A DNA stretch of 63,904 nucleotides, the filler included, from Stramenopiles sp. TOSAG23-6 (lineage: Eukaryota): assembly GCA_900128565.1 (NCBI GenBank). It is 4 parts of 4 records of this genome, joined end to end, with 100 filler letters (N's around TTAATTAATTAA, not from the genome) between each part and the next. Parts side by side here need not be neighbours in the genome. Positions count along the whole stretch, not along the records: positions 1 to 17,462 come from LT636079.1; 3 more parts are not named here. One strand, written 5' to 3'. A program made the translations under genes and the position numbers. Every line of letters begins with the position of its first letter. The first letter of the stretch is position 1. The notes beneath the pieces were generated by a model. The model made no database searches, had not been told where the DNA came from, and worked only from the letters and a program-made list of their open reading frames with translations. Below are positions 1 to 22,476 of the stretch, in pieces.

Positions 1-32
1 CTGTATACTTTTGAAAATATTTTCTTCATCAT

Positions 33-3000: not shown

Positions 3001-4664
3001 TTTGGATTATTCCCCACAAGACGTAAAAATAGTAAGATCATAGCCGATGTTACATCTTGCACTTCATCTACGTATATACGAGTGAACTCATCAGTAGCCG
3101 TGCCGAGATGTGACAACACACAGTCGCCAATGTCAAGCCAAATTGGTTTGTCCTTGCCACCAAGTGTATCAAATTCCTTACTTCGTTTGTATGATTCATA
3201 TACTTCATAGACCTTGAAAATGCTTTCCAATATTTCATCTGATTGAGTCGTATTTTTCTTTGCACTCTCTTTATACTCCTTAAGATTAAGTGCTCTTCCA
3301 TTCTTTGCTGCAAGCACAGATCCTTTGATAATATGTTGTATATGCGCCCACACAACACTTGCAGGTTCATTTAATGCCGACTCTTTGCTATTGACCTTTG
3401 CAAGACTTTTAAACTCATTAAAACGGCTGGCAAACATTTCTTCAGTCACAAATGTAGCTTCATCTGCGGCTCCAGTAACGGATTGATCGATTTGTGCAAA
3501 TATCATACGTTCAGCCATTCCCTCTTCCATCGGCATGAGTTCCTTTTTAGTCTCTCGGGTTAGGTTGAGACTTCTCGAAAAGTATATTTGTTTGGACGCT
3601 TGGCTAGGATCAAGGTGTGCAGGTAAAATATGTTCTGGTTCCGGTTCTAGTTCTGGTGCTAGCTCCAATTCTACTACTTCCGGCATTCTATCACTCTCAA
3701 TCATTAGTGATAAAAGAAGTACAGTTTTACCAGTACCAGGTGGTGCATTAAGAAACAGAAATTTGCCTGTGTTGTGGTCACGAATTTTCTCTTGCTCCTC
3801 CTTTAGCTCGAGAAGTGCACGATAATTGTCCTTTTTGGATTGTCTCTCAAAGTACATTGGGTTTCCATTCGGAACAAAATTATAGTGTCTCTGCGTTTGT
3901 GTAGCTGCTGCTGCTTGATCATCATCTGCAGCATCCATAATTCCTACAGAACCTGATAATATTGCCTGTTCCGTTAATTCAACATATTTTTGAGAGTCGT
4001 CCTTCGAGACAGATCCCGACGCTCTAGCAATATTCTTATGATGTGGTATAAATCTTGTGACATTTACGATGTTGTTGTCGTAAAGTTCAAACTCAAGCCT
4101 GGCACCACCATGCTTTTGCCCGATTCGAACTTTACGTATTCTTGCGTTCATACCATGATGACCTTGAACAGTGTTGGCATGACCACGGCTAAAATCTCCT
4201 TCACTTATATATTGTAAATGTTTAAAAAATGATTTCTTCGCTTCTTTTGTGGCTACATTGTTGATGAAGTCCAAGATGTCACCATTAACGCGAATCGTAT
4301 ATTGTGAAGTCGTGTTTTGTCTGTGTGACAACTCATTTTCATGCGGCAGCTCAATTTTTTTATCGAGAAAAACAGCGATTTCTTCTCCTTCAGGTTCTGG
4401 ATGATCAAGTGCAGATTCAGGTTCTGGATGGATAGGTTCCGGTTTAGTAACTTGATGTATGTCCTCTCTAGTGCTGGCATCAAGCCAGGCGTAAAAGTCA
4501 GTGGAACCTTGAGCTAATTGTAAGAGACTAATCCAGTCATCATTGTTCCCACTTGTTACCTGAGGTTTATGCCGTTTTTTCTTCTGTTTCTTCTTATTCC
4601 CCTTCTTGGATGCAATAACTATAATGCAGGTAACCATAAGAATCAGTATTATAATGGGTCTCAT
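33..4664 (-). CDS. TRANK1-like protein: N-terminal hydrophobic segment, RelE-like domain, UvrD-type SF1 helicase, long ankyrin array (mirror copy)
   Basis: Reverse complement of 12799..17430. Confidence 0.85.
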   Translation of the reverse strand: MRPIIILILMVTCIIVIASKKGNKKKQKKKRHKPQVTSGNNDDWISLLQLAQGSTDFYAWLDASTREDIHQVTKPEPIHPEPESALDHPEPEGEEIAVFLDKKIELPHENELSHRQNTTSQYTIRVNGDILDFINNVATKEAKKSFFKHLQYISEGDFSRGHANTVQGHHGMNARIRKVRIGQKHGGARLEFELYDNNIVNVTRFIPHHKNIARASGSVSKDDSQKYVELTEQAILSGSVGIMDAADDDQAAAATQTQRHYNFVPNGNPMYFERQSKKDNYRALLELKEEQEKIRDHNTGKFLFLNAPPGTGKTVLLLSLMIESDRMPEVVELELAPELEPEPEHILPAHLDPSQASKQIYFSRSLNLTRETKKELMPMEEGMAERMIFAQIDQSVTGAADEATFVTEEMFASRFNEFKSLAKVNSKESALNEPASVVWAHIQHIIKGSVLAAKNGRALNLKEYKESAKKNTTQSDEILESIFKVYEVYESYKRSKEFDTLGGKDKPIWLDIGDCVLSHLGTATDEFTRIYVDEVQDVTSAMILLFLRLVGNNPNRLTLAGDVVQQLVPGVMFRVEDVKDILYFVESENSSRVKLDAETKEPKTLKTNYRNSSGVVEMGNHVKNLLRTQFKLTNAVEDSGIVTGVPPVIWGYAHPRTLQDMRTALGDAPNATLIFRTEAERQVFLNDPLFSRNGSNASLRGSSPGTNDNLQINTVSLHNAKGLEYENVILVNFFSSSVEQIKHSWRHLLNTTSESAEDKLRREGYYDAMEYELRILYTAISRTKTRLFIFETQPIWEKELSKYVIDHWLKPLAAMGHVEPEPELEPEKTHDVTVSDRNIVTILSPEPSSDLTTILQLEQLTATQKRQTAMRNVLLVVQSGDDLDQSYKMYLLQQAQVLAMEGNSPDLQGRIKTVEYCVAGLNGTFESKADTISYMMTCIPVGLTMYASKALIEYGKNATLSADKKEIFRKIALELGVNESALDNFQGKTSGHTSVHKSKATGQVDLDINAVDVDGNTALMRAAIRGIKRDVYELLRQNANVDIQNKSMETALILAAKDNHRAVVDKLLQNGAKLDIKDHHGKTALDYATALETRGVRNAIERQKAKNTVLSVQLLDYVTTGQKGRLKTLLSTNAFDVNESYFNDVNYVTLLMVASQNGHTDTVITLLEHGANVEAKDDNDLTSLMAASDNGHTATVIALLERGANIEAKDNNGVTSLMTACFRGQTETVKALLKRGANINANSNTGWTALMAASDKGNTAIVNALLERRVAIEAKNDAGWTSLMIASQKGKTETVNALLDRDANIEAEDNIGTTSLMAASVNGETDTVIALLKRGPDIEAKDHKGWTSLIWAASKGHTATVNALLERHANTEAKANDDWTPLMFASGNGYIEIVKALLLGGADVHIPDNNVLIPLTFASQKGHTEVVELLLANGADVNLAQMDGITPLWIASEVGHVGVVRLLLGKGANVNQPKQNGVTPLLISSQKGFEGVVQLLLEKGADVNHADNYGSTPLLIASKYGYAEIIQLLEAASAIAEAGEDGP

Positions 4665-4833
4665 AATTGATATTTGGTAATGATATTTCCTTGAATGTTT
4701 CAGAACGAAGGACACGTACGCTGGGGGGCTTTGTGGTGGGTATGGTGCGCGCTGACTCGATCGATGTGGTATAGGAGTAAAACACGTATCTCGAAAAATC
4801 ACAAATATTGTTCTTTACTTATGTATTAAAATT

Positions 4834-6257
4834 TTATTTTTTTTCATTAAGCAAACTCTTCAATTCTTCACTGAAAAAATCCTCTGGTGACTCTCCCTCA
4901 TCGTCTTTTATTGTTGGATCTGCGCCAGCTTGGATTAGTAAAAGTGCAACTTGACTATGCTCACAGCAGCAAGCCATGTTGGTGAAAAAATATGCCACAC
5001 AAAAAAATCGTTAGGTATGGAATTTCGTACTAAAAAAAAAAAAAATCATCATGAAAACGTACATACTCAGTGGTGTGACACCAGTAGAATCCTTTGTATC
5101 AATTGTAGCCCCTCTTCGCAAACACAATTTTACAAGATTTAAATGCATTGTGAAAGAATACTTCAACAAATTAATTTTTTTTTCGTAAGTACAAAATTTG
5201 GTACAAAAAAATAAAAAAAAATCATTAGGTACAAAATATCGTACCAAAAAAAAATGAAAAACATGATGAAAACGTACATGACCTCGGTCACAAGACCAAT
5301 GAAGAACTGTCCCGCCATCGCCATCTTTTGCGTTTATATGTATTTTGGAAAAATATTTGAAATTTTTTTCGTTAGGTACAAAATTTCGTATGAAAAAACA
5401 ATTTCGAATTTGAAAAAAAATAAAACATACATCTGCGCCTTCATCAAGTAACTTTTCTACGGTAGATAAATCTCCATTACTTGCATAATAAAAAATATCC
5501 TTTTTAGAGTTATGATTTTCTTGTGTACTCGGATCAAATTGTAACGTACTTTGAACAGGACCCATTAGCCCCCCTTGTTTCTTTGTTTGAGTAGGGTTAG
5601 GGTTAGTGCTGGGTGGGACTTTTACGTTGGATAAATTATCTTTCATTAGCCCTTGTTTCTTTGTTTGAGTAGGGTTAGGGTTAGTACTGGGTGGGACTTT
5701 TACGTTGGATAAATTATCTTTCATATTATTATTTACAGCTAGTCTTTCGATTTGTTTTATATATAGTTCCATGTATTTTGGAAAAATATTTCAAAAAAAA
5801 AACGTTAGGTACGAAATTTCGTACGGAAAAAAAACTCGAAATTGAAAAAAAATAAAACATACATTGCTACATTTTGTGGCATATTTCCAAGAGCGAACCA
5901 GGCGTCAAACTTTGCGCGTGCACGAAATTCGAATAGTGCAGGTCGTTCGCCTGTACACTTTCCGTATTTAGACTGTTTGAAGAATGCATATAGCTGCAGT
6001 TGCTCTTCTGTCGAAATTGATGATATCAATCCTGCGTGTTTCACAGCAGCATCAAATCTGCTCTTAAGAAGATTGTCTTTCTTTTCATTTGATACTGCGG
6101 CATCTTTCGTTGTTTTGATCGCTTGGCGTTTTTTCGCTATTTTATGACGAAAATAATTCCAGAATACATACGATATAATAACACTAAATGTTGATGCTGC
6201 TACTGACTTACATGATAGCCACTCCAATACTATGTGTAAACGATCTTTGAGTAACAT
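4834..6257 (-). CDS. Acyl-CoA-binding domain + ankyrin repeat protein, ACBD6-like, 5 exons (mirror copy)
   Basis: Mirror of 11206..12629. Introns at 5771-5862, 5338-5430, 5143-5277, 4976-5062. Confidence 0.85.
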
Positions 6258-6700
6258 GACTGAATGCTTTTTCGTAAAATTTGTATGTGCTGGTATATCT
6301 AGTTAATATCGTCAAGGTTGGCTTTTCTTCAGCTCAGCGATCAGAATAGTATAGCCGCACACACAAGCTAACAACTTATATTTGAAAGGATGAACGACTG
6401 ATTATTTACCTATATATTCGTTGCGCGGCAATATTCGTTTTTAAATTTTTCAAAAGTAGAATTTCGATTTTTATCGATTTTTGGCGGTCACAAAATTTCT
6501 CCTTGACAGACGGAAGGAAGGAGGAACGACAGGAAATTAAGTATACAAGTAAAACTTTGCTAAAACTTTGTTCCCTTTGTTTTGGGCATTTATAGGATCA
6601 ATCAAAGAAAATTGTTCAAAGGACAAACCCTTTCACATTAACTCCTGTCAAGGATTCGTTTGAGAAGAAAGTAGGAGATAGAACAAATCCTATCGGTAGG

Positions 6701-7459
6701 ATGCCTGGAGCTCTGGAAATGTTTGAAAGGGAGCCTAGAGCAAAAAAAGAGGACACTGAAAATCCAATGCCTACTGGAGGTATGAATCTAGGTTTGAATG
6801 CAGGATTTCAATTAGGGGAGAATTCTGTAATAGGTAAAAGAACATGTATTGTAGTTGATATGCGTAATGGAGCGGCTGCACCAGCTACCTCAAACAAAAG
6901 TACAAAAAATTCAAAGTCAAAAAAAACTAATTCAGCAAAAGTTCCAGGTTGCTCGGATAAGGTTGAAGTAGGTTATTTTTTTCTTCTTTTGTCAGCGTTG
7001 CTTGTTTATATTGCAATCGGTATAATTGCAGGAAAACCAGGAAATGGTGATTTAAAGAAAAGTGTTCACTGTTGTGCTCCTTTTCACATAGTATTTGGGG
7101 CAATAGGTTGGTGGTTCCCGCCTCTTTTTCTTTTCTTTGTGTTTTATCAAATTGCCGATCATTATGGATTTTGGTGGAAAGAGCCTCTCTATCAATTTCA
7201 CGATGAACAAGAGAGTTGGATGGAAACTTTTACTGATGTATTAGAATATTTTGTTGGCCTTTTTCTTGTTGAAGTATGTCGATGGGTTCGTCCTTTACGT
7301 TTTAGTTGTATGAAACTTTGTTGGCTTCATTGGAGACGGACAGGTCGTTGTACTGACGCTCCTCCATTTTGTATTCACAACTGTTGCACATCTTGTGTTG
7401 ATCGTTTTGAAGATGTTCTTGAGGAACATACTGTTATTAAAGTGAAAGAAGTATCATAG
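6701..7459 (+). CDS. Hypothetical multi-pass membrane protein, intronless
   Basis: 252-aa ATG-started ORF with several hydrophobic segments and a Cys-rich C-terminus. Confidence 0.7.
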   Translation: MPGALEMFEREPRAKKEDTENPMPTGGMNLGLNAGFQLGENSVIGKRTCIVVDMRNGAAAPATSNKSTKNSKSKKTNSAKVPGCSDKVEVGYFFLLLSALLVYIAIGIIAGKPGNGDLKKSVHCCAPFHIVFGAIGWWFPPLFLFFVFYQIADHYGFWWKEPLYQFHDEQESWMETFTDVLEYFVGLFLVEVCRWVRPLRFSCMKLCWLHWRRTGRCTDAPPFCIHNCCTSCVDRFEDVLEEHTVIKVKEVS

Positions 7460-7616
7460 CAGTTGAAATGTGAAACTAATGTAATTGTTCCAAAAATGAG
7501 TGAGAAGTGTTGTTTACGTAGATTTAAATTTTTGGGAGTCAGTGCCACGTGTGACCAAATATTAATCCAGCTACTACAGGCCGGTACTCTACACTACAGT
7601 AGAAAAAAATAGAATT

Positions 7617-8731
7617 ATGACAAAATCTACTAGCACTTTTCAATGGTTAGCTGCTGCATCTGCTACTCTTACTATTGCTACAAGTATTTTCTATTTTTGG
7701 CAACGTAGAATTGCTAAAAAATATAAAAAGACGGAGGATATAGTTAATGGCGAGGCAATCTTTGTAAAAGAACGAATGACAATGATAATAACAACTTCAC
7801 CTACCCAGTCAAACCCCTCAACATCTCTGATTGAAGAACTGTTTCATTCATTTTCCTATGTACCTGAATTAAAGCACTGCCATAAAATTATTGTTTGTGA
7901 TGGCATAAAAATTGCTCACGAAGGTCGCAAGTCTAAATATCGTAGTGGAATCATTACAACCAAAGCTCTCGCGGCATACAACTTATACTTGAAAAAAATT
8001 CGTCAGCTCGCTACACGTGAGGAAGGTCAGTGGACAAATGTTCAGATTTTGGAACTAAATAATAGGAATGGTTTTGGTTTTGCTGTTAAAGAGGCACTAG
8101 AAAAGGTAAAAACTGACTATGTCATGGTCTGTCAACATGTACGTTTTCATCATTTTGATTTCAATTTTTTTTTTTGGTATGAAATTTTGTACCTAACGAT
8201 TTTTTTTTGACATTTTTTTTTTTCACACAACATGACCGACTATTTGGACAAAAATGGCACGGTTTGCCAATGACCCTTCGTGCTCTAGAAGCATTTCACG
8301 ACGAAGTTAGTTTTATTGGTCTGCCAACTAATTCTACACGTGATTATATTCATCGTATGCGTGTATGTTTTAATTTCAATTTTTTACATATTTTTTTTTT
8401 CGTACGAAATTTTGTACCTAACAAATTTTAGTTTTTTTTGAAATATTTTTTCACAATACATAGTCGATTTCATATCGATCTCTCAAAAAAGTGGAAGCAC
8501 TTTAAAGGTGGAGTAAAATTATTACCAATGCTCGTTTGGTTAGATAGTACTCATATAGCATCCGTTCAGTACTATAGAGATTTCGTGTTTAATAAAGATC
8601 GAAAATTGGTCTCAAAAGGTGGTTTTATGTATGTTTTCAATTTTTTTTTTTTTTTTTTTTAGTATGAAATTTTGTACATAAAAAAAAAAAAATTTAAAAT
8701 TATACGTAACAAAAAAAACGAATTCAAAAAA
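7617..8731 (+). CDS. Putative GT-A-fold glycosyltransferase-like protein, 3'-truncated at the fold-back axis
   Basis: N-terminal TM segment, then IITTSP, IIVCDG, GFGFAV and VMVCQHD motifs. Removing introns 8139-8233 and 8363-8461 (both GT..AT) gives a continuous frame. A third intron starts at 8629. Confidence 0.65.
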
Positions 8732-9846
8732 TTTTTTGAATTCGTTTTTTTTGTTACGTATAATTTTAAATTTTTTTTTTTTTATGTACAAAATTTCATA
8801 CTAAAAAAAAAAAAAAAAAAAATTGAAAACATACATAAAACCACCTTTTGAGACCAATTTTCGATCTTTATTAAACACGAAATCTCTATAGTACTGAACG
8901 GATGCTATATGAGTACTATCTAACCAAACGAGCATTGGTAATAATTTTACTCCACCTTTAAAGTGCTTCCACTTTTTTGAGAGATCGATATGAAATCGAC
9001 TATGTATTGTGAAAAAATATTTCAAAAAAAACTAAAATTTGTTAGGTACAAAATTTCGTACGAAAAAAAAAATATGTAAAAAATTGAAATTAAAACATAC
9101 ACGCATACGATGAATATAATCACGTGTAGAATTAGTTGGCAGACCAATAAAACTAACTTCGTCGTGAAATGCTTCTAGAGCACGAAGGGTCATTGGCAAA
9201 CCGTGCCATTTTTGTCCAAATAGTCGGTCATGTTGTGTGAAAAAAAAAAATGTCAAAAAAAAATCGTTAGGTACAAAATTTCATACCAAAAAAAAAAATT
9301 GAAATCAAAATGATGAAAACGTACATGTTGACAGACCATGACATAGTCAGTTTTTACCTTTTCTAGTGCCTCTTTAACAGCAAAACCAAAACCATTCCTA
9401 TTATTTAGTTCCAAAATCTGAACATTTGTCCACTGACCTTCCTCACGTGTAGCGAGCTGACGAATTTTTTTCAAGTATAAGTTGTATGCCGCGAGAGCTT
9501 TGGTTGTAATGATTCCACTACGATATTTAGACTTGCGACCTTCGTGAGCAATTTTTATGCCATCACAAACAATAATTTTATGGCAGTGCTTTAATTCAGG
9601 TACATAGGAAAATGAATGAAACAGTTCTTCAATCAGAGATGTTGAGGGGTTTGACTGGGTAGGTGAAGTTGTTATTATCATTGTCATTCGTTCTTTTACA
9701 AAGATTGCCTCGCCATTAACTATATCCTCCGTCTTTTTATATTTTTTAGCAATTCTACGTTGCCAAAAATAGAAAATACTTGTAGCAATAGTAAGAGTAG
9801 CAGATGCAGCAGCTAACCATTGAAAAGTGCTAGTAGATTTTGTCAT
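8732..9846 (-). CDS. Mirror copy of the putative glycosyltransferase-like gene
   Basis: Reverse complement of 7617..8731. Confidence 0.65.
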
Positions 9847-10003
9847 AATTCTATTTTTTTCTACTGTAGTGTAGAGTACCGGCCTGTAGTAGCTGGATTA
9901 ATATTTGGTCACACGTGGCACTGACTCCCAAAAATTTAAATCTACGTAAACAACACTTCTCACTCATTTTTGGAACAATTACATTAGTTTCACATTTCAA
10001 CTG

Positions 10004-10762
10004 CTATGATACTTCTTTCACTTTAATAACAGTATGTTCCTCAAGAACATCTTCAAAACGATCAACACAAGATGTGCAACAGTTGTGAATACAAAATGGA
10101 GGAGCGTCAGTACAACGACCTGTCCGTCTCCAATGAAGCCAACAAAGTTTCATACAACTAAAACGTAAAGGACGAACCCATCGACATACTTCAACAAGAA
10201 AAAGGCCAACAAAATATTCTAATACATCAGTAAAAGTTTCCATCCAACTCTCTTGTTCATCGTGAAATTGATAGAGAGGCTCTTTCCACCAAAATCCATA
10301 ATGATCGGCAATTTGATAAAACACAAAGAAAAGAAAAAGAGGCGGGAACCACCAACCTATTGCCCCAAATACTATGTGAAAAGGAGCACAACAGTGAACA
10401 CTTTTCTTTAAATCACCATTTCCTGGTTTTCCTGCAATTATACCGATTGCAATATAAACAAGCAACGCTGACAAAAGAAGAAAAAAATAACCTACTTCAA
10501 CCTTATCCGAGCAACCTGGAACTTTTGCTGAATTAGTTTTTTTTGACTTTGAATTTTTTGTACTTTTGTTTGAGGTAGCTGGTGCAGCCGCTCCATTACG
10601 CATATCAACTACAATACATGTTCTTTTACCTATTACAGAATTCTCCCCTAATTGAAATCCTGCATTCAAACCTAGATTCATACCTCCAGTAGGCATTGGA
10701 TTTTCAGTGTCCTCTTTTTTTGCTCTAGGCTCCCTTTCAAACATTTCCAGAGCTCCAGGCAT
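10004..10762 (-). CDS. Mirror copy of the hypothetical membrane protein
   Basis: Reverse complement of 6701..7459. Confidence 0.7.
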   Translation of the reverse strand: MPGALEMFEREPRAKKEDTENPMPTGGMNLGLNAGFQLGENSVIGKRTCIVVDMRNGAAAPATSNKSTKNSKSKKTNSAKVPGCSDKVEVGYFFLLLSALLVYIAIGIIAGKPGNGDLKKSVHCCAPFHIVFGAIGWWFPPLFLFFVFYQIADHYGFWWKEPLYQFHDEQESWMETFTDVLEYFVGLFLVEVCRWVRPLRFSCMKLCWLHWRRTGRCTDAPPFCIHNCCTSCVDRFEDVLEEHTVIKVKEVS

Positions 10763-11205
10763 CCTACCGATAGGATTTGTTCTATCTCCTACTTTCTTCT
10801 CAAACGAATCCTTGACAGGAGTTAATGTGAAAGGGTTTGTCCTTTGAACAATTTTCTTTGATTGATCCTATAAATGCCCAAAACAAAGGGAACAAAGTTT
10901 TAGCAAAGTTTTACTTGTATACTTAATTTCCTGTCGTTCCTCCTTCCTTCCGTCTGTCAAGGAGAAATTTTGTGACCGCCAAAAATCGATAAAAATCGAA
11001 ATTCTACTTTTGAAAAATTTAAAAACGAATATTGCCGCGCAACGAATATATAGGTAAATAATCAGTCGTTCATCCTTTCAAATATAAGTTGTTAGCTTGT
11101 GTGTGCGGCTATACTATTCTGATCGCTGAGCTGAAGAAAAGCCAACCTTGACGATATTAACTAGATATACCAGCACATACAAATTTTACGAAAAAGCATT
11201 CAGTC

Positions 11206-12629
11206 ATGTTACTCAAAGATCGTTTACACATAGTATTGGAGTGGCTATCATGTAAGTCAGTAGCAGCATCAACATTTAGTGTTATTATATCGTATGTATT
11301 CTGGAATTATTTTCGTCATAAAATAGCGAAAAAACGCCAAGCGATCAAAACAACGAAAGATGCCGCAGTATCAAATGAAAAGAAAGACAATCTTCTTAAG
11401 AGCAGATTTGATGCTGCTGTGAAACACGCAGGATTGATATCATCAATTTCGACAGAAGAGCAACTGCAGCTATATGCATTCTTCAAACAGTCTAAATACG
11501 GAAAGTGTACAGGCGAACGACCTGCACTATTCGAATTTCGTGCACGCGCAAAGTTTGACGCCTGGTTCGCTCTTGGAAATATGCCACAAAATGTAGCAAT
11601 GTATGTTTTATTTTTTTTCAATTTCGAGTTTTTTTTCCGTACGAAATTTCGTACCTAACGTTTTTTTTTTGAAATATTTTTCCAAAATACATGGAACTAT
11701 ATATAAAACAAATCGAAAGACTAGCTGTAAATAATAATATGAAAGATAATTTATCCAACGTAAAAGTCCCACCCAGTACTAACCCTAACCCTACTCAAAC
11801 AAAGAAACAAGGGCTAATGAAAGATAATTTATCCAACGTAAAAGTCCCACCCAGCACTAACCCTAACCCTACTCAAACAAAGAAACAAGGGGGGCTAATG
11901 GGTCCTGTTCAAAGTACGTTACAATTTGATCCGAGTACACAAGAAAATCATAACTCTAAAAAGGATATTTTTTATTATGCAAGTAATGGAGATTTATCTA
12001 CCGTAGAAAAGTTACTTGATGAAGGCGCAGATGTATGTTTTATTTTTTTTCAAATTCGAAATTGTTTTTTCATACGAAATTTTGTACCTAACGAAAAAAA
12101 TTTCAAATATTTTTCCAAAATACATATAAACGCAAAAGATGGCGATGGCGGGACAGTTCTTCATTGGTCTTGTGACCGAGGTCATGTACGTTTTCATCAT
12201 GTTTTTCATTTTTTTTTGGTACGATATTTTGTACCTAATGATTTTTTTTTATTTTTTTGTACCAAATTTTGTACTTACGAAAAAAAAATTAATTTGTTGA
12301 AGTATTCTTTCACAATGCATTTAAATCTTGTAAAATTGTGTTTGCGAAGAGGGGCTACAATTGATACAAAGGATTCTACTGGTGTCACACCACTGAGTAT
12401 GTACGTTTTCATGATGATTTTTTTTTTTTTTAGTACGAAATTCCATACCTAACGATTTTTTTGTGTGGCATATTTTTTCACCAACATGGCTTGCTGCTGT
12501 GAGCATAGTCAAGTTGCACTTTTACTAATCCAAGCTGGCGCAGATCCAACAATAAAAGACGATGAGGGAGAGTCACCAGAGGATTTTTTCAGTGAAGAAT
12601 TGAAGAGTTTGCTTAATGAAAAAAAATAA
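11206..12629 (+). CDS. Acyl-CoA-binding domain + ankyrin repeat protein, ACBD6-like, 5 exons
   Basis: ACBP motif LQLYAFFKQ...RAKFDAW...AM|ELYI. Ankyrin repeats GAD|INAKDGDGGTVLHWSCDRGH|LNLVKL...TPLSM|ACCCEH are restored by removing introns 11601-11692, 12033-12125, 12186-12320 and 12401-12487. Confidence 0.88.
11601..11692 (+). mobile_element. Introner-like intron, GT..AT (representative family member)
   Basis: AT|GTATGTTTT...CCGTACGAAATTTCGTACCTAACG...GAAATATTTTTCCAAAATACAT|G. Removal restores the ACBP segment VAMELYI. Confidence 0.85.
12033..12125 (+). mobile_element. Introner-like intron, GT..AT
   Basis: Same family motifs. Removal restores ankyrin GADINAKD. Confidence 0.85.
12186..12320 (+). 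mobile_element. Introner-like intron with duplicated core, GT..AT
   Basis: Two GTAC..ATTTTGTACYTA cores. Removal restores RGHLNLVKL. Confidence 0.8.
12401..12487 (+). mobile_element. Introner-like intron, GT..AT
   Basis: Removal restores TPLSMACC. Confidence 0.8.
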
Positions 12630-12798
12630 AATTTTAATACATAAGTAAAGAACAATATTTGTGATTTTTCGAGATACGTGTTTTACTCCTATACCACATC
12701 GATCGAGTCAGCGCGCACCATACCCACCACAAAGCCCCCCAGCGTACGTGTCCTTCGTTCTGAAACATTCAAGGAAATATCATTACCAAATATCAATT

Positions 12799-15700
12799 AT
12801 GAGACCCATTATAATACTGATTCTTATGGTTACCTGCATTATAGTTATTGCATCCAAGAAGGGGAATAAGAAGAAACAGAAGAAAAAACGGCATAAACCT
12901 CAGGTAACAAGTGGGAACAATGATGACTGGATTAGTCTCTTACAATTAGCTCAAGGTTCCACTGACTTTTACGCCTGGCTTGATGCCAGCACTAGAGAGG
13001 ACATACATCAAGTTACTAAACCGGAACCTATCCATCCAGAACCTGAATCTGCACTTGATCATCCAGAACCTGAAGGAGAAGAAATCGCTGTTTTTCTCGA
13101 TAAAAAAATTGAGCTGCCGCATGAAAATGAGTTGTCACACAGACAAAACACGACTTCACAATATACGATTCGCGTTAATGGTGACATCTTGGACTTCATC
13201 AACAATGTAGCCACAAAAGAAGCGAAGAAATCATTTTTTAAACATTTACAATATATAAGTGAAGGAGATTTTAGCCGTGGTCATGCCAACACTGTTCAAG
13301 GTCATCATGGTATGAACGCAAGAATACGTAAAGTTCGAATCGGGCAAAAGCATGGTGGTGCCAGGCTTGAGTTTGAACTTTACGACAACAACATCGTAAA
13401 TGTCACAAGATTTATACCACATCATAAGAATATTGCTAGAGCGTCGGGATCTGTCTCGAAGGACGACTCTCAAAAATATGTTGAATTAACGGAACAGGCA
13501 ATATTATCAGGTTCTGTAGGAATTATGGATGCTGCAGATGATGATCAAGCAGCAGCAGCTACACAAACGCAGAGACACTATAATTTTGTTCCGAATGGAA
13601 ACCCAATGTACTTTGAGAGACAATCCAAAAAGGACAATTATCGTGCACTTCTCGAGCTAAAGGAGGAGCAAGAGAAAATTCGTGACCACAACACAGGCAA
13701 ATTTCTGTTTCTTAATGCACCACCTGGTACTGGTAAAACTGTACTTCTTTTATCACTAATGATTGAGAGTGATAGAATGCCGGAAGTAGTAGAATTGGAG
13801 CTAGCACCAGAACTAGAACCGGAACCAGAACATATTTTACCTGCACACCTTGATCCTAGCCAAGCGTCCAAACAAATATACTTTTCGAGAAGTCTCAACC
13901 TAACCCGAGAGACTAAAAAGGAACTCATGCCGATGGAAGAGGGAATGGCTGAACGTATGATATTTGCACAAATCGATCAATCCGTTACTGGAGCCGCAGA
14001 TGAAGCTACATTTGTGACTGAAGAAATGTTTGCCAGCCGTTTTAATGAGTTTAAAAGTCTTGCAAAGGTCAATAGCAAAGAGTCGGCATTAAATGAACCT
14101 GCAAGTGTTGTGTGGGCGCATATACAACATATTATCAAAGGATCTGTGCTTGCAGCAAAGAATGGAAGAGCACTTAATCTTAAGGAGTATAAAGAGAGTG
14201 CAAAGAAAAATACGACTCAATCAGATGAAATATTGGAAAGCATTTTCAAGGTCTATGAAGTATATGAATCATACAAACGAAGTAAGGAATTTGATACACT
14301 TGGTGGCAAGGACAAACCAATTTGGCTTGACATTGGCGACTGTGTGTTGTCACATCTCGGCACGGCTACTGATGAGTTCACTCGTATATACGTAGATGAA
14401 GTGCAAGATGTAACATCGGCTATGATCTTACTATTTTTACGTCTTGTGGGGAATAATCCAAATAGGCTTACTCTTGCCGGGGATGTTGTGCAACAGCTCG
14501 TTCCTGGTGTAATGTTTCGTGTTGAAGATGTCAAGGATATTTTATACTTTGTTGAATCTGAGAATTCTTCTCGTGTAAAATTAGATGCTGAGACAAAAGA
14601 ACCAAAGACATTGAAAACTAATTATCGCAATAGTAGTGGGGTTGTGGAAATGGGTAATCATGTAAAGAATCTTCTGAGGACACAATTCAAACTTACAAAT
14701 GCAGTCGAAGATTCCGGTATTGTAACAGGTGTACCTCCTGTAATATGGGGCTATGCGCATCCACGTACATTACAGGACATGCGCACAGCTTTGGGTGATG
14801 CACCAAATGCGACACTGATCTTTCGTACCGAGGCAGAACGTCAAGTGTTTTTGAACGATCCATTATTTAGTCGTAATGGAAGTAATGCAAGCTTGCGTGG
14901 ATCATCGCCTGGCACGAATGATAATCTACAAATCAATACTGTGAGTTTGCACAATGCGAAAGGACTGGAGTATGAAAATGTGATTCTCGTAAATTTCTTT
15001 TCATCATCTGTTGAGCAGATTAAACATAGTTGGAGGCACTTACTGAATACTACTAGTGAATCAGCGGAAGACAAATTACGACGGGAAGGATATTATGATG
15101 CAATGGAATACGAGTTGAGAATACTGTATACTGCAATCTCTCGAACAAAGACTCGTTTGTTTATATTTGAGACGCAACCAATATGGGAGAAGGAGCTCAG
15201 TAAATATGTAATTGATCATTGGTTGAAGCCGTTAGCAGCAATGGGACACGTGGAACCCGAACCAGAACTAGAACCTGAAAAAACACATGATGTCACAGTT
15301 TCTGACCGAAATATTGTTACTATCCTTTCACCAGAACCATCTAGTGACCTAACTACAATATTACAGCTTGAACAACTTACTGCAACACAAAAGAGACAAA
15401 CTGCAATGAGAAATGTTCTCCTTGTGGTGCAAAGTGGCGACGACCTCGATCAATCATACAAGATGTATCTATTACAACAAGCGCAAGTCTTAGCTATGGA
15501 AGGAAATTCTCCAGACCTACAAGGTAGAATCAAGACTGTAGAGTACTGTGTGGCAGGTTTGAACGGCACATTTGAATCAAAAGCTGATACAATTTCATAT
15601 ATGATGACTTGTATTCCTGTTGGACTTACTATGTATGCTTCAAAAGCACTTATTGAGTATGGTAAGAATGCGACTTTGTCTGCAGATAAGAAAGAAATTT

Positions 15701-17430
15701 TTCGAAAAATTGCTCTTGAACTTGGTGTAAATGAATCAGCATTGGATAATTTTCAGGGTAAAACAAGCGGGCATACCTCTGTCCATAAAAGCAAGGCGAC
15801 CGGGCAAGTTGATTTAGATATTAATGCTGTTGATGTGGACGGCAACACTGCTTTAATGAGAGCAGCAATTCGTGGCATTAAACGAGATGTATATGAATTG
15901 CTACGACAAAATGCTAATGTAGACATTCAGAACAAGTCGATGGAAACTGCTTTGATTCTTGCTGCAAAAGATAACCATCGCGCGGTGGTGGATAAGCTGC
16001 TCCAAAATGGGGCAAAACTTGATATAAAAGATCACCATGGTAAAACTGCATTAGACTATGCCACTGCATTGGAAACAAGAGGAGTCCGGAATGCCATAGA
16101 GCGACAGAAGGCCAAAAATACAGTATTATCTGTACAACTCCTTGACTATGTTACGACGGGCCAAAAGGGTCGTTTGAAGACATTGTTATCAACCAATGCA
16201 TTTGATGTAAATGAAAGTTATTTTAATGATGTTAATTATGTCACATTATTGATGGTTGCTTCTCAAAATGGTCATACAGATACTGTGATTACTTTATTGG
16301 AACACGGTGCAAATGTTGAGGCAAAAGATGATAATGACTTGACGTCATTGATGGCTGCTTCCGACAATGGTCATACAGCAACTGTAATTGCTTTATTGGA
16401 ACGAGGTGCAAATATTGAAGCAAAGGATAATAATGGCGTAACTTCATTGATGACTGCTTGTTTTCGTGGCCAAACAGAAACTGTGAAAGCTTTATTGAAA
16501 CGTGGTGCAAATATTAATGCAAATTCTAATACTGGTTGGACAGCATTGATGGCTGCTTCTGATAAGGGCAATACAGCAATTGTGAATGCTTTATTGGAAC
16601 GCCGTGTAGCAATTGAAGCAAAGAATGATGCTGGATGGACGTCGTTGATGATTGCTTCTCAAAAAGGAAAAACAGAAACTGTGAATGCTTTATTGGATCG
16701 CGATGCAAATATTGAAGCAGAGGATAATATTGGGACTACATCATTGATGGCTGCTTCTGTAAATGGCGAAACAGATACTGTGATTGCTTTATTGAAACGT
16801 GGTCCAGATATTGAAGCAAAGGATCATAAGGGCTGGACATCATTAATCTGGGCTGCTTCAAAGGGCCATACAGCAACTGTGAATGCTTTATTGGAACGCC
16901 ATGCAAATACTGAAGCAAAGGCTAATGATGATTGGACACCATTGATGTTTGCTTCTGGAAATGGCTATATAGAAATTGTGAAAGCTTTATTGCTAGGCGG
17001 TGCAGACGTTCATATACCGGATAATAATGTGTTGATACCATTGACGTTTGCTTCTCAAAAGGGTCATACAGAAGTTGTTGAATTACTTCTCGCTAATGGT
17101 GCTGATGTCAATCTTGCTCAAATGGATGGAATTACCCCATTGTGGATTGCTTCAGAGGTTGGTCATGTTGGAGTAGTTCGATTACTTCTTGGTAAAGGTG
17201 CAAATGTCAATCAGCCTAAACAAAACGGAGTTACGCCATTGCTTATTTCTTCTCAAAAGGGTTTTGAGGGAGTAGTTCAACTACTTCTTGAAAAGGGTGC
17301 TGATGTCAATCATGCTGATAATTATGGAAGTACCCCATTGCTTATTGCTTCAAAGTATGGTTATGCGGAAATAATTCAACTACTTGAAGCTGCGAGTGCG
17401 ATTGCTGAAGCAGGTGAAGATGGACCATGA
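12799..17430 (+). CDS. TRANK1-like protein: N-terminal hydrophobic segment, RelE-like domain, UvrD-type SF1 helicase, long ankyrin array; intronless
   Basis: SF1 motifs APPGTGKT, IYVDEVQD, AGDVVQQ, LKTNYRNS, HNAKGLEY, LYTAISRTK. More than 15 ankyrin repeats. The first ATG is at 12799 (MRPIIILILMV); the ORF track starts earlier at a GTG. Confidence 0.85.
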   Translation: MRPIIILILMVTCIIVIASKKGNKKKQKKKRHKPQVTSGNNDDWISLLQLAQGSTDFYAWLDASTREDIHQVTKPEPIHPEPESALDHPEPEGEEIAVFLDKKIELPHENELSHRQNTTSQYTIRVNGDILDFINNVATKEAKKSFFKHLQYISEGDFSRGHANTVQGHHGMNARIRKVRIGQKHGGARLEFELYDNNIVNVTRFIPHHKNIARASGSVSKDDSQKYVELTEQAILSGSVGIMDAADDDQAAAATQTQRHYNFVPNGNPMYFERQSKKDNYRALLELKEEQEKIRDHNTGKFLFLNAPPGTGKTVLLLSLMIESDRMPEVVELELAPELEPEPEHILPAHLDPSQASKQIYFSRSLNLTRETKKELMPMEEGMAERMIFAQIDQSVTGAADEATFVTEEMFASRFNEFKSLAKVNSKESALNEPASVVWAHIQHIIKGSVLAAKNGRALNLKEYKESAKKNTTQSDEILESIFKVYEVYESYKRSKEFDTLGGKDKPIWLDIGDCVLSHLGTATDEFTRIYVDEVQDVTSAMILLFLRLVGNNPNRLTLAGDVVQQLVPGVMFRVEDVKDILYFVESENSSRVKLDAETKEPKTLKTNYRNSSGVVEMGNHVKNLLRTQFKLTNAVEDSGIVTGVPPVIWGYAHPRTLQDMRTALGDAPNATLIFRTEAERQVFLNDPLFSRNGSNASLRGSSPGTNDNLQINTVSLHNAKGLEYENVILVNFFSSSVEQIKHSWRHLLNTTSESAEDKLRREGYYDAMEYELRILYTAISRTKTRLFIFETQPIWEKELSKYVIDHWLKPLAAMGHVEPEPELEPEKTHDVTVSDRNIVTILSPEPSSDLTTILQLEQLTATQKRQTAMRNVLLVVQSGDDLDQSYKMYLLQQAQVLAMEGNSPDLQGRIKTVEYCVAGLNGTFESKADTISYMMTCIPVGLTMYASKALIEYGKNATLSADKKEIFRKIALELGVNESALDNFQGKTSGHTSVHKSKATGQVDLDINAVDVDGNTALMRAAIRGIKRDVYELLRQNANVDIQNKSMETALILAAKDNHRAVVDKLLQNGAKLDIKDHHGKTALDYATALETRGVRNAIERQKAKNTVLSVQLLDYVTTGQKGRLKTLLSTNAFDVNESYFNDVNYVTLLMVASQNGHTDTVITLLEHGANVEAKDDNDLTSLMAASDNGHTATVIALLERGANIEAKDNNGVTSLMTACFRGQTETVKALLKRGANINANSNTGWTALMAASDKGNTAIVNALLERRVAIEAKNDAGWTSLMIASQKGKTETVNALLDRDANIEAEDNIGTTSLMAASVNGETDTVIALLKRGPDIEAKDHKGWTSLIWAASKGHTATVNALLERHANTEAKANDDWTPLMFASGNGYIEIVKALLLGGADVHIPDNNVLIPLTFASQKGHTEVVELLLANGADVNLAQMDGITPLWIASEVGHVGVVRLLLGKGANVNQPKQNGVTPLLISSQKGFEGVVQLLLEKGADVNHADNYGSTPLLIASKYGYAEIIQLLEAASAIAEAGEDGP

Positions 17431-17462
17431 ATGATGAAGAAAATATTTTCAAAAGTATACAG

Positions 17463-17562: not shown

Positions 17563-18460
17563 CTCTTGTGTGGAATCACCGCTCGGTAAATCCATATTTC
17601 TGTCTAGAATAAATGATGGAATTTGTGACTGCTGTGATGGAAGTGATGAAAAATCTACCATTGGGTGCATAAATGTGTGTAGTATCGAGCAATCTGAGTT
17701 GAATGCGAAGTATTCGGGACGTCTTTCTGGATGTCAAGCAAAGCTCAAACTATTAGAATTAACTCACTCCAAGCAAGTTTTCTATGAAAAGACACAGAGA
17801 GAGACAATAGAAAAGCAATCGGAATTCAATAAACAGCTGAAATTGTTAAATTTGGAATTAAATAATCATAGAGCAATGCTGCAAGAGAGGAAACAACTAC
17901 ATGAAGAATTTCAGCTTAAAGGATCAGCTTATTTAGGTTTAGTACGTTGCTTGAAAAATAGTTCTCCAGATGAAACTTCCCACTGTTCTTTTTCTAATAT
18001 AGAAATATTGAATGTTATTAATCATATGGTTGACACAAATCCGACTGAAGTCAAACGTGTATCCGAAACTTTACTAAACTCGAATTCGATGAGGAGAATT
18101 TCAACTGATAATAAAAATAAAGAAGATTGCTCTTGTAGTAGTATTGATTATGACACCTCATTTAATCTACAATTAATTTGGAGACAATTGTCCCAAAAAC
18201 AAGAAATTCCGTCAATTGAATACATAGAAAATCAAAAAAGAGAAATTGAGGATTCAAAAAATAAATTACAACGGATTCAACGGATGTCAGAGAAAGAGTA
18301 TCTTTTAGATTTTGGTCCTGATCGTATTTGGTGGCCGTTACTCGGTAAATGCGTTGAAAAAAAAGAATATAGCGTATGTTTGATGAAATACGCAAAACAA
18401 GGTAATGAAAGTTTAGGTAGATTTTCTGGCTGGGTCGATCCAACTGAGTCAATACCCAAT
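17563..18460 (+). CDS. Glucosidase II beta subunit (PRKCSH)-like, partial
   Basis: SRINDGICDCCDGSDE, a coiled coil, then the start of an MRH domain (FGPD..W..L.GKC...YSVC...SLGRFSGW). 5'-truncated. The expected end of the MRH domain is missing after intron 18461-18552. Confidence 0.8.
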
Positions 18461-18552
18461 GTTTGTTTTATTTTTTTTCAATTTAGAATTTATTTTTCGT
18501 ACGAAAATTTGTACCTAACGATTTTTTTTTGAAATATTTTTCCAAAATACAT

Positions 18553-19374
18553 GAATTACACGAACTTATTTTGTCAAATGCAGGTTCGAATCTTGAGTGG
18601 CATCGACAACAAAGCAGTGAATATGATTTCAGTGATGGCTTTGTTGTCCCAGACGATGCCCCAATTGAAGAAGCAGAGTCAAGTTCTACAGAAAGTCCAA
18701 AACAAAACATTACTAGGACACGTTTACGGAAACGTCGTCATCGAATTCAACGTAATAACCCTAACCCTAATAACCCTACAAATACAAATTGTCTGCCGGA
18801 TTTTGATATGACGACTCCACCTAGACAGAAGTTAAAACGCTTAAAAAGAGTCACAGATACAGAGGATAATACTTTTAGTACTACGACTCGTATTAATTCA
18901 CACGTAGGAATAAGTAATAATGAAGAAGTTAAGAATTTTGACCCTAGCCCTAACCCTAAGAGTTTTGACAATCGTAAAAGCCCTAACCCTACTAAGAGTA
19001 ACAAAAGCAACGTTTGGAATGATTTTGCTTTCCGTAAAACCGCAAAAAAAGCAAACAATATTTTACATGCGTCCACCACACATCCTTGTAGTACTGACCA
19101 AAACAATAAAAAAATAAATATAATAAGTGAACAAAATAGTTCTGAAATTGAAAATTCAAAACTAGTAAAGTTTGAAAATAATAATAATGAAAATTCATGT
19201 CGAGAAAAGGCACGACTTTCAAAACATGAAATGAGACGACAAGACCTTTACTTTCAAAACATGGCGAAAGAGAGAGCAAAACAACGTCTACAAGAATTTC
19301 GTTTGTCGAGGTCTTCAGTGATACCTGAAACTCCACCTGACTATTCAAGAACAAGAAGGAGTAAATACTTTTAG
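18553..19374 (+). CDS. Terminal exon of a hypothetical low-complexity protein, probably a different gene from the upstream exon
   Basis: Open 273-codon frame after the GT..AT intron 18461-18552. No MRH residues. Contains several NPNP/SPNP telomeric inserts. Confidence 0.55.
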   Translation, partial: ELHELILSNAGSNLEWHRQQSSEYDFSDGFVVPDDAPIEEAESSSTESPKQNITRTRLRKRRHRIQRNNPNPNNPTNTNCLPDFDMTTPPRQKLKRLKRVTDTEDNTFSTTTRINSHVGISNNEEVKNFDPSPNPKSFDNRKSPNPTKSNKSNVWNDFAFRKTAKKANNILHASTTHPCSTDQNNKKINIISEQNSSEIENSKLVKFENNNNENSCREKARLSKHEMRRQDLYFQNMAKERAKQRLQEFRLSRSSVIPETPPDYSRTRRSKYF

Positions 19375-19430
19375 GGTTAGGGTTTGGGTTGAAACTCCAC
19401 CTGACTATTCAAGAACAAGAATGAGTAAAT
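19326..19430 (+). repeat. 41-bp direct duplication flanking a telomeric insert
   Basis: TGAAACTCCACCTGACTATTCAAGAACAAGAA(G/T)GAGTAAAT at 19326-19366 and 19390-19430, with TTAGGGTTAGGGTTTGGG between them. Confidence 0.9.
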
Positions 19431-19511
19431 TCATAAATGATGTAAATGATGTAAATTATGTTTAATTGATATTGTAAAGTNTTTTTTTTTTGTCTTTTTG
19501 TATGAATACAT

Positions 19512-20096
19512 TCAAAGAATTGCACATTTTCCACTCTTTTTTTTGTTAAGACTGGCTTTTACTGCTGCTGAGAAAACTTCCTTAAGTCCTTCACCAGTAA
19601 TGGAAGCACATTCAACATATTCTACAGCTCCAATTTCCTTCATTAAACTTTGAGCCTCAGCAGTCGAAATAGGTTTTTTTTTTCGATATGCCAGTGCTTC
19701 AATTGTGTCATCATCATCCCTTAGGTCCATTTTAGTACCAACAAGTATAATATTAGCCCCACTAGATTCAGAATTTATGATACTAGGAAACCATTTCTCC
19801 CGAACATTAGAGAACGAAGCTGGGCTGATAACGGAAAATGCAATAAGGAATGTATCAACTTCTTTATATGCCAATCCGCGTATATTATCATAGTCTTCTT
19901 GCCCTGCTGTGTCCCATAGGTTTAGTCTTATTCTCCCGTGTGAAGTAGTGTCAATATCAGCTGTGTAGTTATCAAATATAGTTGGTACATAATCTTCTGG
20001 AAAACTACCCTTTGTATATGATATTAACATACAGGTTTTTCCAACAGCACCGTCACCAATAGTAACGACCTTGATGCTTTTACTTGGCTCTGCCAT
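19512..20096 (-). CDS. Rho-family (Rac-like) small GTPase, intronless
   Basis: GDGAVGKT, YVPTIFDNY, LWDTAGQEDYD, GTKMDLR, ECAS, and a polybasic tail ending in CAAX (CAIL). Confidence 0.95.
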   Translation of the reverse strand: MAEPSKSIKVVTIGDGAVGKTCMLISYTKGSFPEDYVPTIFDNYTADIDTTSHGRIRLNLWDTAGQEDYDNIRGLAYKEVDTFLIAFSVISPASFSNVREKWFPSIINSESSGANIILVGTKMDLRDDDDTIEALAYRKKKPISTAEAQSLMKEIGAVEYVECASITGEGLKEVFSAAVKASLNKKKSGKCAIL

Positions 20097-20365
20097 TGTA
20101 CGTAATCCAAATAGAAATGTTGGAAAAAAACTATATAAATCTTCTTATCTCATCTCTCGCTTGGAATTTTTGGAGGAACGAACTTTGAACATTTGAAAAT
20201 TTAAATTGATGTTTCGTACACGAAATCTAGTTAATTTGTTTGACACGTGTCCCGATCATTCATTGACTTGTATGGTTGTACCACAACACTATAAATATAT
20301 ATTATAAAGTTTCAATTTTGTGAGCTTGAAATGTGTAATACAATTTGCTGACCGTTAAGAAAGCG

Positions 20366-21398
20366 ATGGTGCTTTTGTTGAAACAACTCCGTTATTCAGC
20401 GTGTCTTCTTGATAAGGGCAGTGTATTTTTTAACTCTGTATATCGTGTTTTTTCTTCGAAAGAATCATCTTTCACTGAAGAAGAAGTTCAAGACAACAAG
20501 GGTAAAGCTACCATTGGTTCAACAACAAGGCGCGGTATAAAGAAGTCTTGTATTACAGAGAATGTATCAGAGAGGCATTCTCGTTCTAATTGTAGTAAAC
20601 ATTTGCCTACTGTAGACCGAATCGCGCACTTGCTTGATGCCTTGGAAAAGTCACGCTTCCCAGATATTCAGACAAACCTCCGTTCAACTGGAGATATTTC
20701 TATTCAGACAAACCTCCGTTCAACTGGAGACATTTCTGTTCCAAGAAATCTAAAACACCAACACATGAGTTGCGATAACAAACCATTTGATATTATAAAA
20801 CACGAAAAACATACTTTATCAGTAAAAAAAAAGACACTTTTACATGTACAAAAAAAGAAAAAAGTAGAGTCTGCAACAAAATCTTCTGAATTAAACAAAG
20901 CTGTACGATATCATGACTGGGAGCTATGTAAATCTCTTGACGTTGAAGTAGAAAATATAAAGTCACAAATGAAACAAATAGATTCAGATATCGTAGTTTG
21001 TGATATTAAATTAGCCATCATCCAGGATGATTGGGAAAACGCTATGATTCTCTTAAGTTGTACGTTTTTAAAATTCCATGTGAAATATTGTTTTTTTATA
21101 TGAAAATATGTACCTAACAAAAAAAACTCTTATTAAAAAAATATTTTTTTACAATATATATTGTACGGAGAGTTCCATATTATGGAATATTTTTGAAGAT
21201 ATTGAAGTTTTGGGGCTATCGACAACTCAACTTCAAGTTCCTTTAATGAGAGCTACTTGGAGAGAAGTACAAAATGAGCATAGAGTTTCTCGGAATTCTC
21301 GGAATGGTATTGATTATGAAAAGGATGAGATATTTTCAAAAGGATCTCTTCAGCGTTTAGACTCAATTTTTCGAAGATTTAATGTCGAATCTTATTAG
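20366..21398 (+). CDS. Hypothetical protein, 2 exons
   Basis: Intron 21060-21159 (GT..TAT) joins LLS-YCTESS in frame. Contains a 36-nt tandem duplication (IQTNLRSTGDIS x2). Confidence 0.55.
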
Positions 21399-22304: not shown

Positions 22305-22476
22305 AAATTGTATCAAAAAAGTAAACAAAATGTATTGTGAAAAAAATTTAAAAAAAAATTAAACAAAAATTGTTAGGTACAAAATTTCGTACAAAAACAA
22401 AATCTAACGGTTTCATTGTAATTTGTTTTAATAATATAAAAGATTATCTAAAACACTTTCCTTCGCCAAAATATAC

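Follow-up and report, generated by a model that had tools for sequence, protein, structure and literature searches.

Introduction

The AG that closes an intron is among the most constant signals of eukaryotic gene expression, and the few natural systems that abandon it usually abandon other signals as well. The closest of these, as the accessible parts of the cited papers describe them, fall into several kinds. Some introner families carry a 5′ splice site and take their 3′ site from the target duplication (PMC9860276, PMC11282704), and a survey of introners recognizes AG and AC as known 3′ ends and requires RNA proof for any others (PMC12130899). Fritillaria borealis has AG-AC and AG-AT introns derived from miniature inverted-repeat transposable elements (MITEs), which are removed by the U2 spliceosome, with diverged U2AF paralogues binding the odd 3′ ends (PMC11282704, PMC13326754). 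In Amoebophrya, introns of variable ends are bordered by inverted repeats and by direct repeats of 3-5 nucleotides (nt) (PMC7789003); in hemistasiid diplonemids the intron ends are GC-rich, variable and extensively paired (PMC12621601); and in euglenids mass departures from GT-AG are tied to transposon-like introns (PMC11282704). Here we analyze a stretch of 63,904 bases from Stramenopiles sp. TOSAG23-6 (GCA_900128565.1), called the window below, which consists of four contigs with N spacers between them and carries one repeated family of ~95-base introns that mostly begin with GT and end in AT. We consider these elements to be, probably though not with certainty, an introner-type, MITE-like family of U2-type introns with mostly non-AG 3′ ends.

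One intron family, mostly without a terminal AG

Two of the contigs (1-17462 and 35071-52368) are their own reverse complement (identity 1.0 and 0.999), a pattern as from inverted amplification or assembly chimeras, so that every copy on them is doubled in the raw window count. The independent sequence comprises 8732-17462, 17563-34970, 35071-43719 and 52469-63904 (~46 kb), over which a profile made from six copies and iterated with nhmmer gave 54 matches at E≤1 and 46 at E≤0.001, or ~40 introns once the pieces of compound copies are merged. A first-pass annotation of the window had counted about 37 non-redundant introns across all four contigs; the count here is slightly higher, and the family does occur on all four, with the copies on the palindromic pair doubled.

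The elements are ~90-110 nt long and follow one plan: GTAYGTTTT at the 5′ end, a core ending in GTACCTAAC, a T-run and, at the 3′ end, TTTTYCAMAATAC plus two nucleotides. An alignment of 20 copies reads GTAYGTTTT, a variable T-rich arm, (C)GTACGAAATTTT-GTACCTAAC, the T-run (sometimes followed by an A-run) and ATATTTTTYCAMAATAC plus two bases, with invariant GTACCTAAC-type core columns. Mean pairwise identity is 0.67 among copies and 0.82 inside a subfamily of seven. The four segments at 11601-12487 for which these motifs were first reported do bear them. All copies are sense-oriented within protein-coding genes, including PurB, ABCF, ACBP-ankyrin, PRKCSH-like, AAA and other genes. A scan of public contigs with the core motif found one more copy, on an unrelated 3.2-kb metagenome contig, with AT before GT and a CAT end; there was no match in a set of prokaryote genome contigs or a set of viral contigs. 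In DNA and RNA runs, words of the element exceed unique flanks in depth by factors of hundreds to thousands; this depth is not a copy number, and we did not use it as evidence.

For 30 copies, both borders were curated by position weight matrices and by eye. The first dinucleotide is GT in 28, GA in one and AT in one; the last is AT in 22 (73 %), AG in five, and GT, TT and AA in one each. The end is thus non-AG in 25/30 and the final base T in 24/30, whereas position -3 is C or T in 30/30 and position -2 is A in 28/30. The earlier estimate that about three quarters end in AT holds, as does the observation that AG-ending copies share the last alignment column with AT-ending ones; the count of "only four" AG-ending copies has to be raised to five (22815, 23135, 30576, 53834 and, in addition, 34295). 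Most of the 30 copies show an extended 5′ consensus with G at +5 followed by a T-run, and about half read GTACGT. As motif evidence for the branch site, a CTAAC or CTAAT box is present in 26/30, 32-124 nt from the intron end, and the CTAAC box of single-core copies lies 32-60 nt from it.

These signals bear on which spliceosome is at work. Removal by a diverged or expanded minor (U12-type) spliceosome appears unlikely to us. U12-type introns have the 5′ consensus GTATCCTTT, the branch consensus TCCTTAAC and a branch box ~10-20 nt from the 3′ end, and tolerance in the last dinucleotide is a known U12 trait. The family's GTATGTTTT shares 7/9 letters with GTATCCTTT, but half of the copies have GTACGT, with C at +4, and positions +5/+6 are GT, not CC, so that the RTATCCTT consensus is not matched; similarly, CCTAAC resembles TCCTTAAC but stands at 32-60 nt in single-core copies. 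An Rfam scan of the whole window found no family at all, including no U11, U12, U4atac or U6atac, though in only 64 kb. A massive U12 expansion with transposon-like ends has been described in Physarum, according to the accessible part of PMC11282704.

Reading frames across the elements

If the elements are removed at their consensus borders, the flanking coding sequence should be restored. We compared the longest open reading frame (ORF) ending at each 5′ border with the longest starting past the 3′ border and found the two joined by removal of the consensus span in 25/30 copies, against 1/3 expected (binomial P = 2.4e-8). PurB without its four copies is a coding sequence of 1473 nt that is collinear with 10 homologues; three of the four junctions are gap-free against all 10, the junction codon being a family-conserved residue, and the fourth falls in a variable stretch. 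The four copies in the ACBP gene are likewise all in frame, and the joined product continues, by eye, into regular ankyrin repeats. The earlier statement that flanking proteins fix the removed length thus holds for the frames of these 25 copies and for PurB by collinearity.

Joined exons in environmental RNA

Part of 22300-32100 is contained in 13 sequencing runs, seven of which are marine metatranscriptomes. We aligned one DNA metagenome (X3) and three RNA runs (X6, X7 and X8) to 17563-30342; all run data are Logan contigs of environmental samples. Record 19 of X7 (1041 nt, depth 10.7) carries 23244-23344, 23456-23671 and 23778-24473 at contiguous record coordinates and spans the joint 23134>23244 with its first 28 letters. 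Record 24 of X8 (805 nt, depth 12.3) has the joints 23134>23244 and 23671>23778. Between its listed pieces stand 238 letters, the summed length of exons 22909-22999, 23090-23134 and 23244-23344 and base 22814. Three copies of this gene are thus absent outright from the record, and by its length the absence of 22815-22908 and 23000-23089 fits as well. In PurB, X7 record 21 joins 26902 to 27008. Read on the gene strand, the segments left out are GT..AG (23135-23243), GA..GT (23345-23455), GT..AT (23672-23777) and GT..TT (26903-27007), and the RNA contig pieces differ from the window by 0-6 letters over 101-696 nt (at least 99 % identity). In sum, there are four explicit joints in two genes and two more removals by record-length arithmetic: several copies are cut from RNA exactly at the predicted AT, TT, GT and AG ends. 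Polyadenylated contigs thus join exons at the predicted borders rather than retaining the segments, and splicing to other AG sites nearby was not seen in the polyadenylated metatranscriptome contigs, both in line with the first-pass reading.

On the DNA side, X3 contigs enter the elements, for example 28271-29293 and 29329-30337, which flank the copy 29270-29360. Among the joints listed, none at these borders comes from X3, and the joined forms come from RNA runs only. This bears on a possible loss of the elements from DNA itself, whether by excision in the manner of ciliate internal eliminated sequences or because insertion-free strains or DNA lie behind the RNA contigs. Contigs by themselves cannot prove that a joined form is RNA, and presence/absence polymorphism of introners is known in other species. 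However, the joined forms stand in polyadenylated RNA runs, the RNA contig that lacks three copies (five by record lengths) is at least 99 % identical in its exons, X3 shows the elements and none of the listed joints, and the elements bear full spliceosomal signals, so that we regard this explanation as very improbable.

It is barely credible, finally, that errors in sequencing or in assembling single-cell-type data produced the AT ends. Palindromic chimeras account for two of the contigs, and some joins at the repeat look chimeric, but the AT end recurs in 22 independent copies and on the unrelated metagenome contig, and the DNA-metagenome contig over 29270 shows no listed difference at its AT end.

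As a separate observation, one RNA run (X6) has a joint 30043>30159 that skips 115 nt inside an ABCF exon, with a short side of 25 letters; it may stem from a paralogue, another organism or an artefact.

GT..AT or AT..AC

In 17/30 copies AT stands directly before GT, so that GT..AT and AT..AC yield the identical mRNA. This holds for all four ACBP introns, which had been offered as the cleanest example and which cannot separate the two registers (the second of them starts at 12033). The decision comes instead from two RNA joints at which exon and intron close with different dinucleotides: TT for the exon in both cases, but AT for the intron 23672-23777 and GT for the intron 23345-23455. Both fit a GT-first register or a one-base shift, never AT..AC, and one register, GT first, suits every RNA-tested copy. 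GT..AT is therefore favoured over AT..AC, as first proposed. Under the other register, the AT-preceded copies would start two bases upstream (ATGTAYGT...) and end in AC, leaving a few odd copies as GT..AT. An A-first/C-last pair is compatible with the second splicing step in yeast, and the 17 ambiguous copies would give the same mRNA; the two joints, however, cannot be so written, AG-ending copies share the final alignment column, GTAYGT would be displaced by two bases from where it normally pairs, and a single GT-first register already accounts for all RNA-tested copies. We thus hold the AT..AC register to be improbable.

Placement of the 3′ cut

The AG does not place the 3′ cut. The terminal AG required of U2-type introns is present in 5/30 copies, and RNA joints fall at AT, TT and GT ends. 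In the RNA-tested non-AG copies ending at 23777, 27007 and 23455, exonic AGs that follow the used site at 7, 4 and 8 nt, respectively, are skipped, and seven copies have an intronic AG at least 8 nt past the branch A whose use would break the frame. What is constant at the 3′ end is the block TTTTYCAMAAWAY, followed by two bases. These observations are consistent with a spliceosome that would largely ignore the 3′ dinucleotide. Two simpler rules were discarded: "first YAT or first AG after the branch" fails because YAT precedes nearly every used site by 14-16 nt, and a fixed distance from branch to 3′ end is ruled out by the spread of 32-60 nt.

RNAalifold, run on 20 copies with 6-nt flanks, found no conserved pairing of the intron ends (0 pairs, consensus energy 0), which lends no support to end-pairing as in euglenids, Amoebophrya or hemistasiids. 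The same result bears on a structure-guided, spliceosome-independent removal in which end pairing would define the cuts, as proposed for euglenid nonconventional introns. The ends do offer short complementarity (GTA...TAC, plus AT/AT where flanks match), and direct repeats at the borders recall euglenids and Amoebophrya (PMC11282704, PMC7789003, in their accessible parts). Yet the end variants GTT, GAA and AAC are uncompensated, no pair is conserved, and the GTAYGT and CTAAC signals and the U-tract are strong; we find such a mechanism most unlikely.

Transposon-like anatomy and a possible target duplication

The inverted ends of the element are short, GTA...TAC, and reach 8 bp in one subfamily; some copies contain an internal perfect palindrome, GTACGAAATTTCGTAC. 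Compound copies with two or three cores occur (12186-12320, 37960-38178), and at 52593-52809 two copies abut exactly at the terminal AT. The two nucleotides before GT equal the last two of the intron in 17/30 copies, against a mean of 12.9 in 100,000 shuffles (P = 0.013), and the matching pairs include TT/TT (27007) and AG/AG (23243). AT precedes GT in 17/30, compared with 9 % AT in a long ORF. These features fit a 2-bp target duplication with a preference for AT, in which case the intron would consist of the element plus the 3′ duplicate.

Separately, 62964-63112 has family-type ends around a reversed core box; CATAAC, ~41 nt from its 3′ end, may serve as the branch site.

A proposed mechanism

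From the combined signals we infer use of the major spliceosome, the branch point, a transposon origin with target duplication and the mode of 3′-site recognition. In the mechanism we propose, a high-copy, MITE-like element lying in sense orientation in coding genes would be removed from pre-mRNA by a U2-type spliceosome. The element carries a 5′ splice site of yeast type, GTAYGT and then TTT, together with a putative branch-site box, UACCUAAC, one base longer than the yeast UACUAAC, and a U-rich tract. The 3′ cut falls at a fixed position of the element, two bases past the conserved block TTTTYCAMAAWAY, where -3 is invariably a pyrimidine, -2 almost always A and -1 more often T than G. The last two bases may be the 3′ repeat left by a 2-bp duplication of the target site, preferably AT; splicing would then take out the element and one duplicate, restoring the ORF. 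By analogy with Fritillaria, 3′ recognition could be via a diverged U2AF or a second-step factor.

It is tempting to go further and to speculate that one introner family gave rise to most or all introns of this uncultured marine lineage, that its spliceosome no longer reads AG, and that the conserved block two bases upstream places the cut before any last dinucleotide (AT, TT, GT, AA or AG) while the 5′ and branch sites stay yeast-like. Such a spliceosome would have been rewired through, for example, a diverged U2AF, Slu7, Prp18 or Prp8, in coevolution with a transposon whose target duplication of 2 bp would serve as the end of the intron. This wider proposal is tentative, and we think it somewhat more apt to fail than to hold.

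Several points weigh against the interpretation given here. The RNA support comes from contigs of environmental samples, not from raw reads of the same cell; the intron-end letters are those of the window assembly, not of the expressing population; and the RNA comparison (17563-30342) excludes the ACBP introns. X7 record 18 aligns to 22815, one base inside the predicted intron 22815-22908. The YAT found 14-16 nt upstream of nearly every used site counts here as well, and the target-duplication signal is modest, with 13/30 pairs differing. No autonomous element, empty site or small nuclear RNA was seen. Lastly, the frame test missed in 5/30 copies (30339-30439, 32786-32882, 33954-34050, 34185-34295 and 63232-63320), by +1, -1 or an unknown amount, and the gapped copy 53113-53369 is also off frame, by -1.

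Some of the off-frame copies look like chimeric joins at the repeat, and a one-base flexibility of the cuts is a possible account of them. At 33288-34431, the N-terminal and middle part of an isovaleryl-CoA-dehydrogenase-like gene runs up to a family intron; there the gene stops half-way, and two EF-hand-like exons follow. This could be a truncated fusion gene or a chimeric join at the repeat. The exon upstream of 63232 is missing the AAA P-loop start that Pfam expects. A dependence of the cut on T-run length after GTATG, with a shift of one base, fitted 2/4 off-frame copies and was dropped.

Outside the family, ~32193-32253 (minus strand), upstream of the ABCF start, is a candidate conventional short intron with GTAAGT, two TACTAAC-type boxes and TAG. 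If it is real, ordinary AG-ending introns also exist outside the family.

Gene content and other features of the window

The GC content of the window ranges from 22 to 42 %, and its genes are eukaryotic in character. Among them are genes for ABCF, a PRKCSH-like protein, an AAA ATPase and a Rho-type GTPase, as well as a giant UvrD-like/ankyrin ORF; further genes encode PurB and the N-terminal half of an isovaleryl-CoA-dehydrogenase-like protein. In the ACBP-ankyrin gene, the ACBP domain (exon 1) is a Pfam match and the ankyrin-like repeats that follow were read by eye; the spliced full-length protein had no matches in a large protein collection. Best identities are 60 %, to environmental proteins, for the first PurB exon and 44 % for a GINT1-like protein. 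The third contig is very AT-rich (GC 21-30 %), bears the same intron family as the others and contains a long poly-asparagine coding tract at 38500-38760.

The window contains 19 occurrences (11 non-redundant sites) of a telomere-like 13-mer, AACCCTAACCCTA, against 0 expected. It often lies inside ORFs, where it is read as Asn-Pro-Asn-Pro. At five of the 11 sites, exact direct repeats of 13-31 nt stand on both sides (95th percentile at random sites, 9 nt), and on this sequence pattern they look like short telomeric-repeat insertions within local target duplications. ACBP exon 2 also contains a 78-nt tandem duplication (11707-11900), with one telomere-like motif per unit.

Table 1. Copies of the intron family and telomere-like sites, with positions in the window; "before" refers to the two nucleotides preceding the first intron base
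Feature	Position	Strand	Remarks
ACBP-ankyrin intron 1, 92 nt	11601-11692	+	GT..AT, AT before GT, register-ambiguous, in frame; mirror 5771-5862
ACBP-ankyrin intron 2, 93 nt	12033-12125	+	GT..AT, AT before GT, in frame
ACBP-ankyrin intron 3, 135 nt	12186-12320	+	compound, second degenerate core; GT..AT, AT before, in frame
ACBP-ankyrin intron 4, 87 nt	12401-12487	+	GT..AT, AT before GT, in frame
Family intron	9002-9100	-	GT..AT, GT before, register-informative, in frame; mirror 8363-8461
Family intron	9230-9324	-	GT..AT, AT before, in frame; mirror 8139-8233
PRKCSH-like gene intron	18461-18552	+	GTTTGT..AT, in frame
Family intron	21060-21159	+	GT..AT, TT before, register-informative, in frame
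Degenerate family intron	22815-22908	-	GT..AG; removal by record-length arithmetic only
Family intron	23000-23089	-	GT..AT, AT before; removal by record-length arithmetic (X8 record 24)
Family intron	23135-23243	-	GT..AG, AG before; RNA joint 23134>23244 in two polyA runs
Family intron	23345-23455	-	GA..GT (or TG..CG); X7 record 19 joins 23344 to 23456
Family intron	23672-23777	-	GT..AT, TT before; joint 23671>23778 in two polyA runs, 1 nt ambiguity
PurB intron 4	26354-26446	-	GT..AT
PurB intron 3, 181 nt	26545-26725	-	compound with internal duplication, GTTTGT..AT
PurB intron 2	26903-27007	-	GT..TT, TT before; X7 record 21 joins 26902 to 27008
PurB intron 1	27179-27278	-	GTAGGT..AT
ABCF intron	29270-29360	-	GT..AT; DNA-metagenome contigs (X3 records 7, 8) enter both ends
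ABCF intron, N-rich 3′ part	30339-30439	-	frame misses; needs one base more removed than consensus borders
ABCF intron	30576-30679	-	GT..AG, AT before, in frame
Family copy between short ORFs	32786-32882	+	GT..AT, frame test missed
Family copy after acyl-CoA dehydrogenase N-terminal half	33954-34050	+	frame off +1; EF-hand-like exons downstream
Family copy between EF-hand-like exons	34185-34295	+	GT..AG, frame off -1
Compound copy, three tandem cores	37960-38178	+	GT..AT, in frame
Family intron with T-run/A-run insert	38821-38950	+	GT..AT, in frame
Two abutting copies, head to tail (52712-52809, 52593-52711)	52593-52809	-	second begins directly after terminal AT of first
Family copy broken by scaffold gap	53113-53369	-	frame off -1
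Family copy	53544-53680	-	GT..AT, in frame
Family intron	53834-53977	-	GT..AG, in frame
Family intron	62814-62905	+	GT..AT; internal TAG 19 nt before end incompatible with frame
Family-like intron, core reversed	62964-63112	+	GT..AT, in frame
Family copy before AAA-ATPase exon	63232-63320	+	frame off -1; upstream exon without expected P-loop start
AAA-ATPase gene intron	63579-63679	+	AT..AA at consensus borders, in frame
Family copy cut by window end	63818-63904	+	
AACCCTAACCCTA sites	11781, 11859, 18757, 19372, 35267, 37575, 39172, 39628, 40550, 43209, 54093 (plus mirrors)		L001 about 2290-2320

Comparison with known systems

Given a textbook GTAYGT and branch box, with the last dinucleotide alone departing, the family singles out the problem of how the site of the second splicing step is located, and it links the finding of the 3′ site to the recruitment of splice sites by intron-generating transposons. 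In practical terms, gene callers based on GT-AG will mis-predict most genes of this abundant-looking marine organism, and related metagenome bins and single-cell assemblies may be similarly under-annotated. The literature searched in full text holds no description of the motif or of GT..AT introner families, although the supplementary catalogues of PMC9860276 and PMC12130899 could list a relative; the accessible part of the single-cell genomics paper (PMC5269757) contains no relevant intron statement.

With the U2 introns of yeast (GTATGT...TACTAAC...YAG) the family shares the 5′ hexamer, a nearly identical branch box, the pyrimidine at -3 and the A at -2; it differs in that the last base is T in 24/30 and that AGs inside and just beyond the intron go unused. 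U12-type (AT-AC) introns resemble it in tolerating several 3′ dinucleotides, and an AT..AC reading is possible in 17/30 copies, but the 5′ consensus and the branch distance do not fit and RNA excludes AT..AC in two copies. As far as the accessible parts of the sources go, the introners of Micromonas pusilla, Aureococcus, Chrysochromulina and others are alike in being near-identical sense copies that serve as introns in unrelated genes and are precisely removed; those introners, however, use GT/GC..AG, whereas 25/30 copies here are non-AG and the putative duplication is only 2 bp. Within the same limits, Fritillaria has in common with the family transposon-derived introns with non-AG 3′ ends, AT among them, but its introns also lack the 5′ GT, whereas the family keeps a canonical yeast-like 5′ site and branch box in a host that is a protist. 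Amoebophrya, hemistasiids and euglenids share the mass departure from GT-AG, the repeated families and the short direct repeats across the borders, again by the accessible text (PMC7789003, PMC12621601, PMC11282704); in those three, ends vary on both sides and pairing is extended, whereas here GT, the branch box and the U-tract are kept and no conserved pairing is found. Taken together, the departure in this family is confined essentially to the last base or two of the intron, and in this it differs from the known non-canonical systems with which we compared it.

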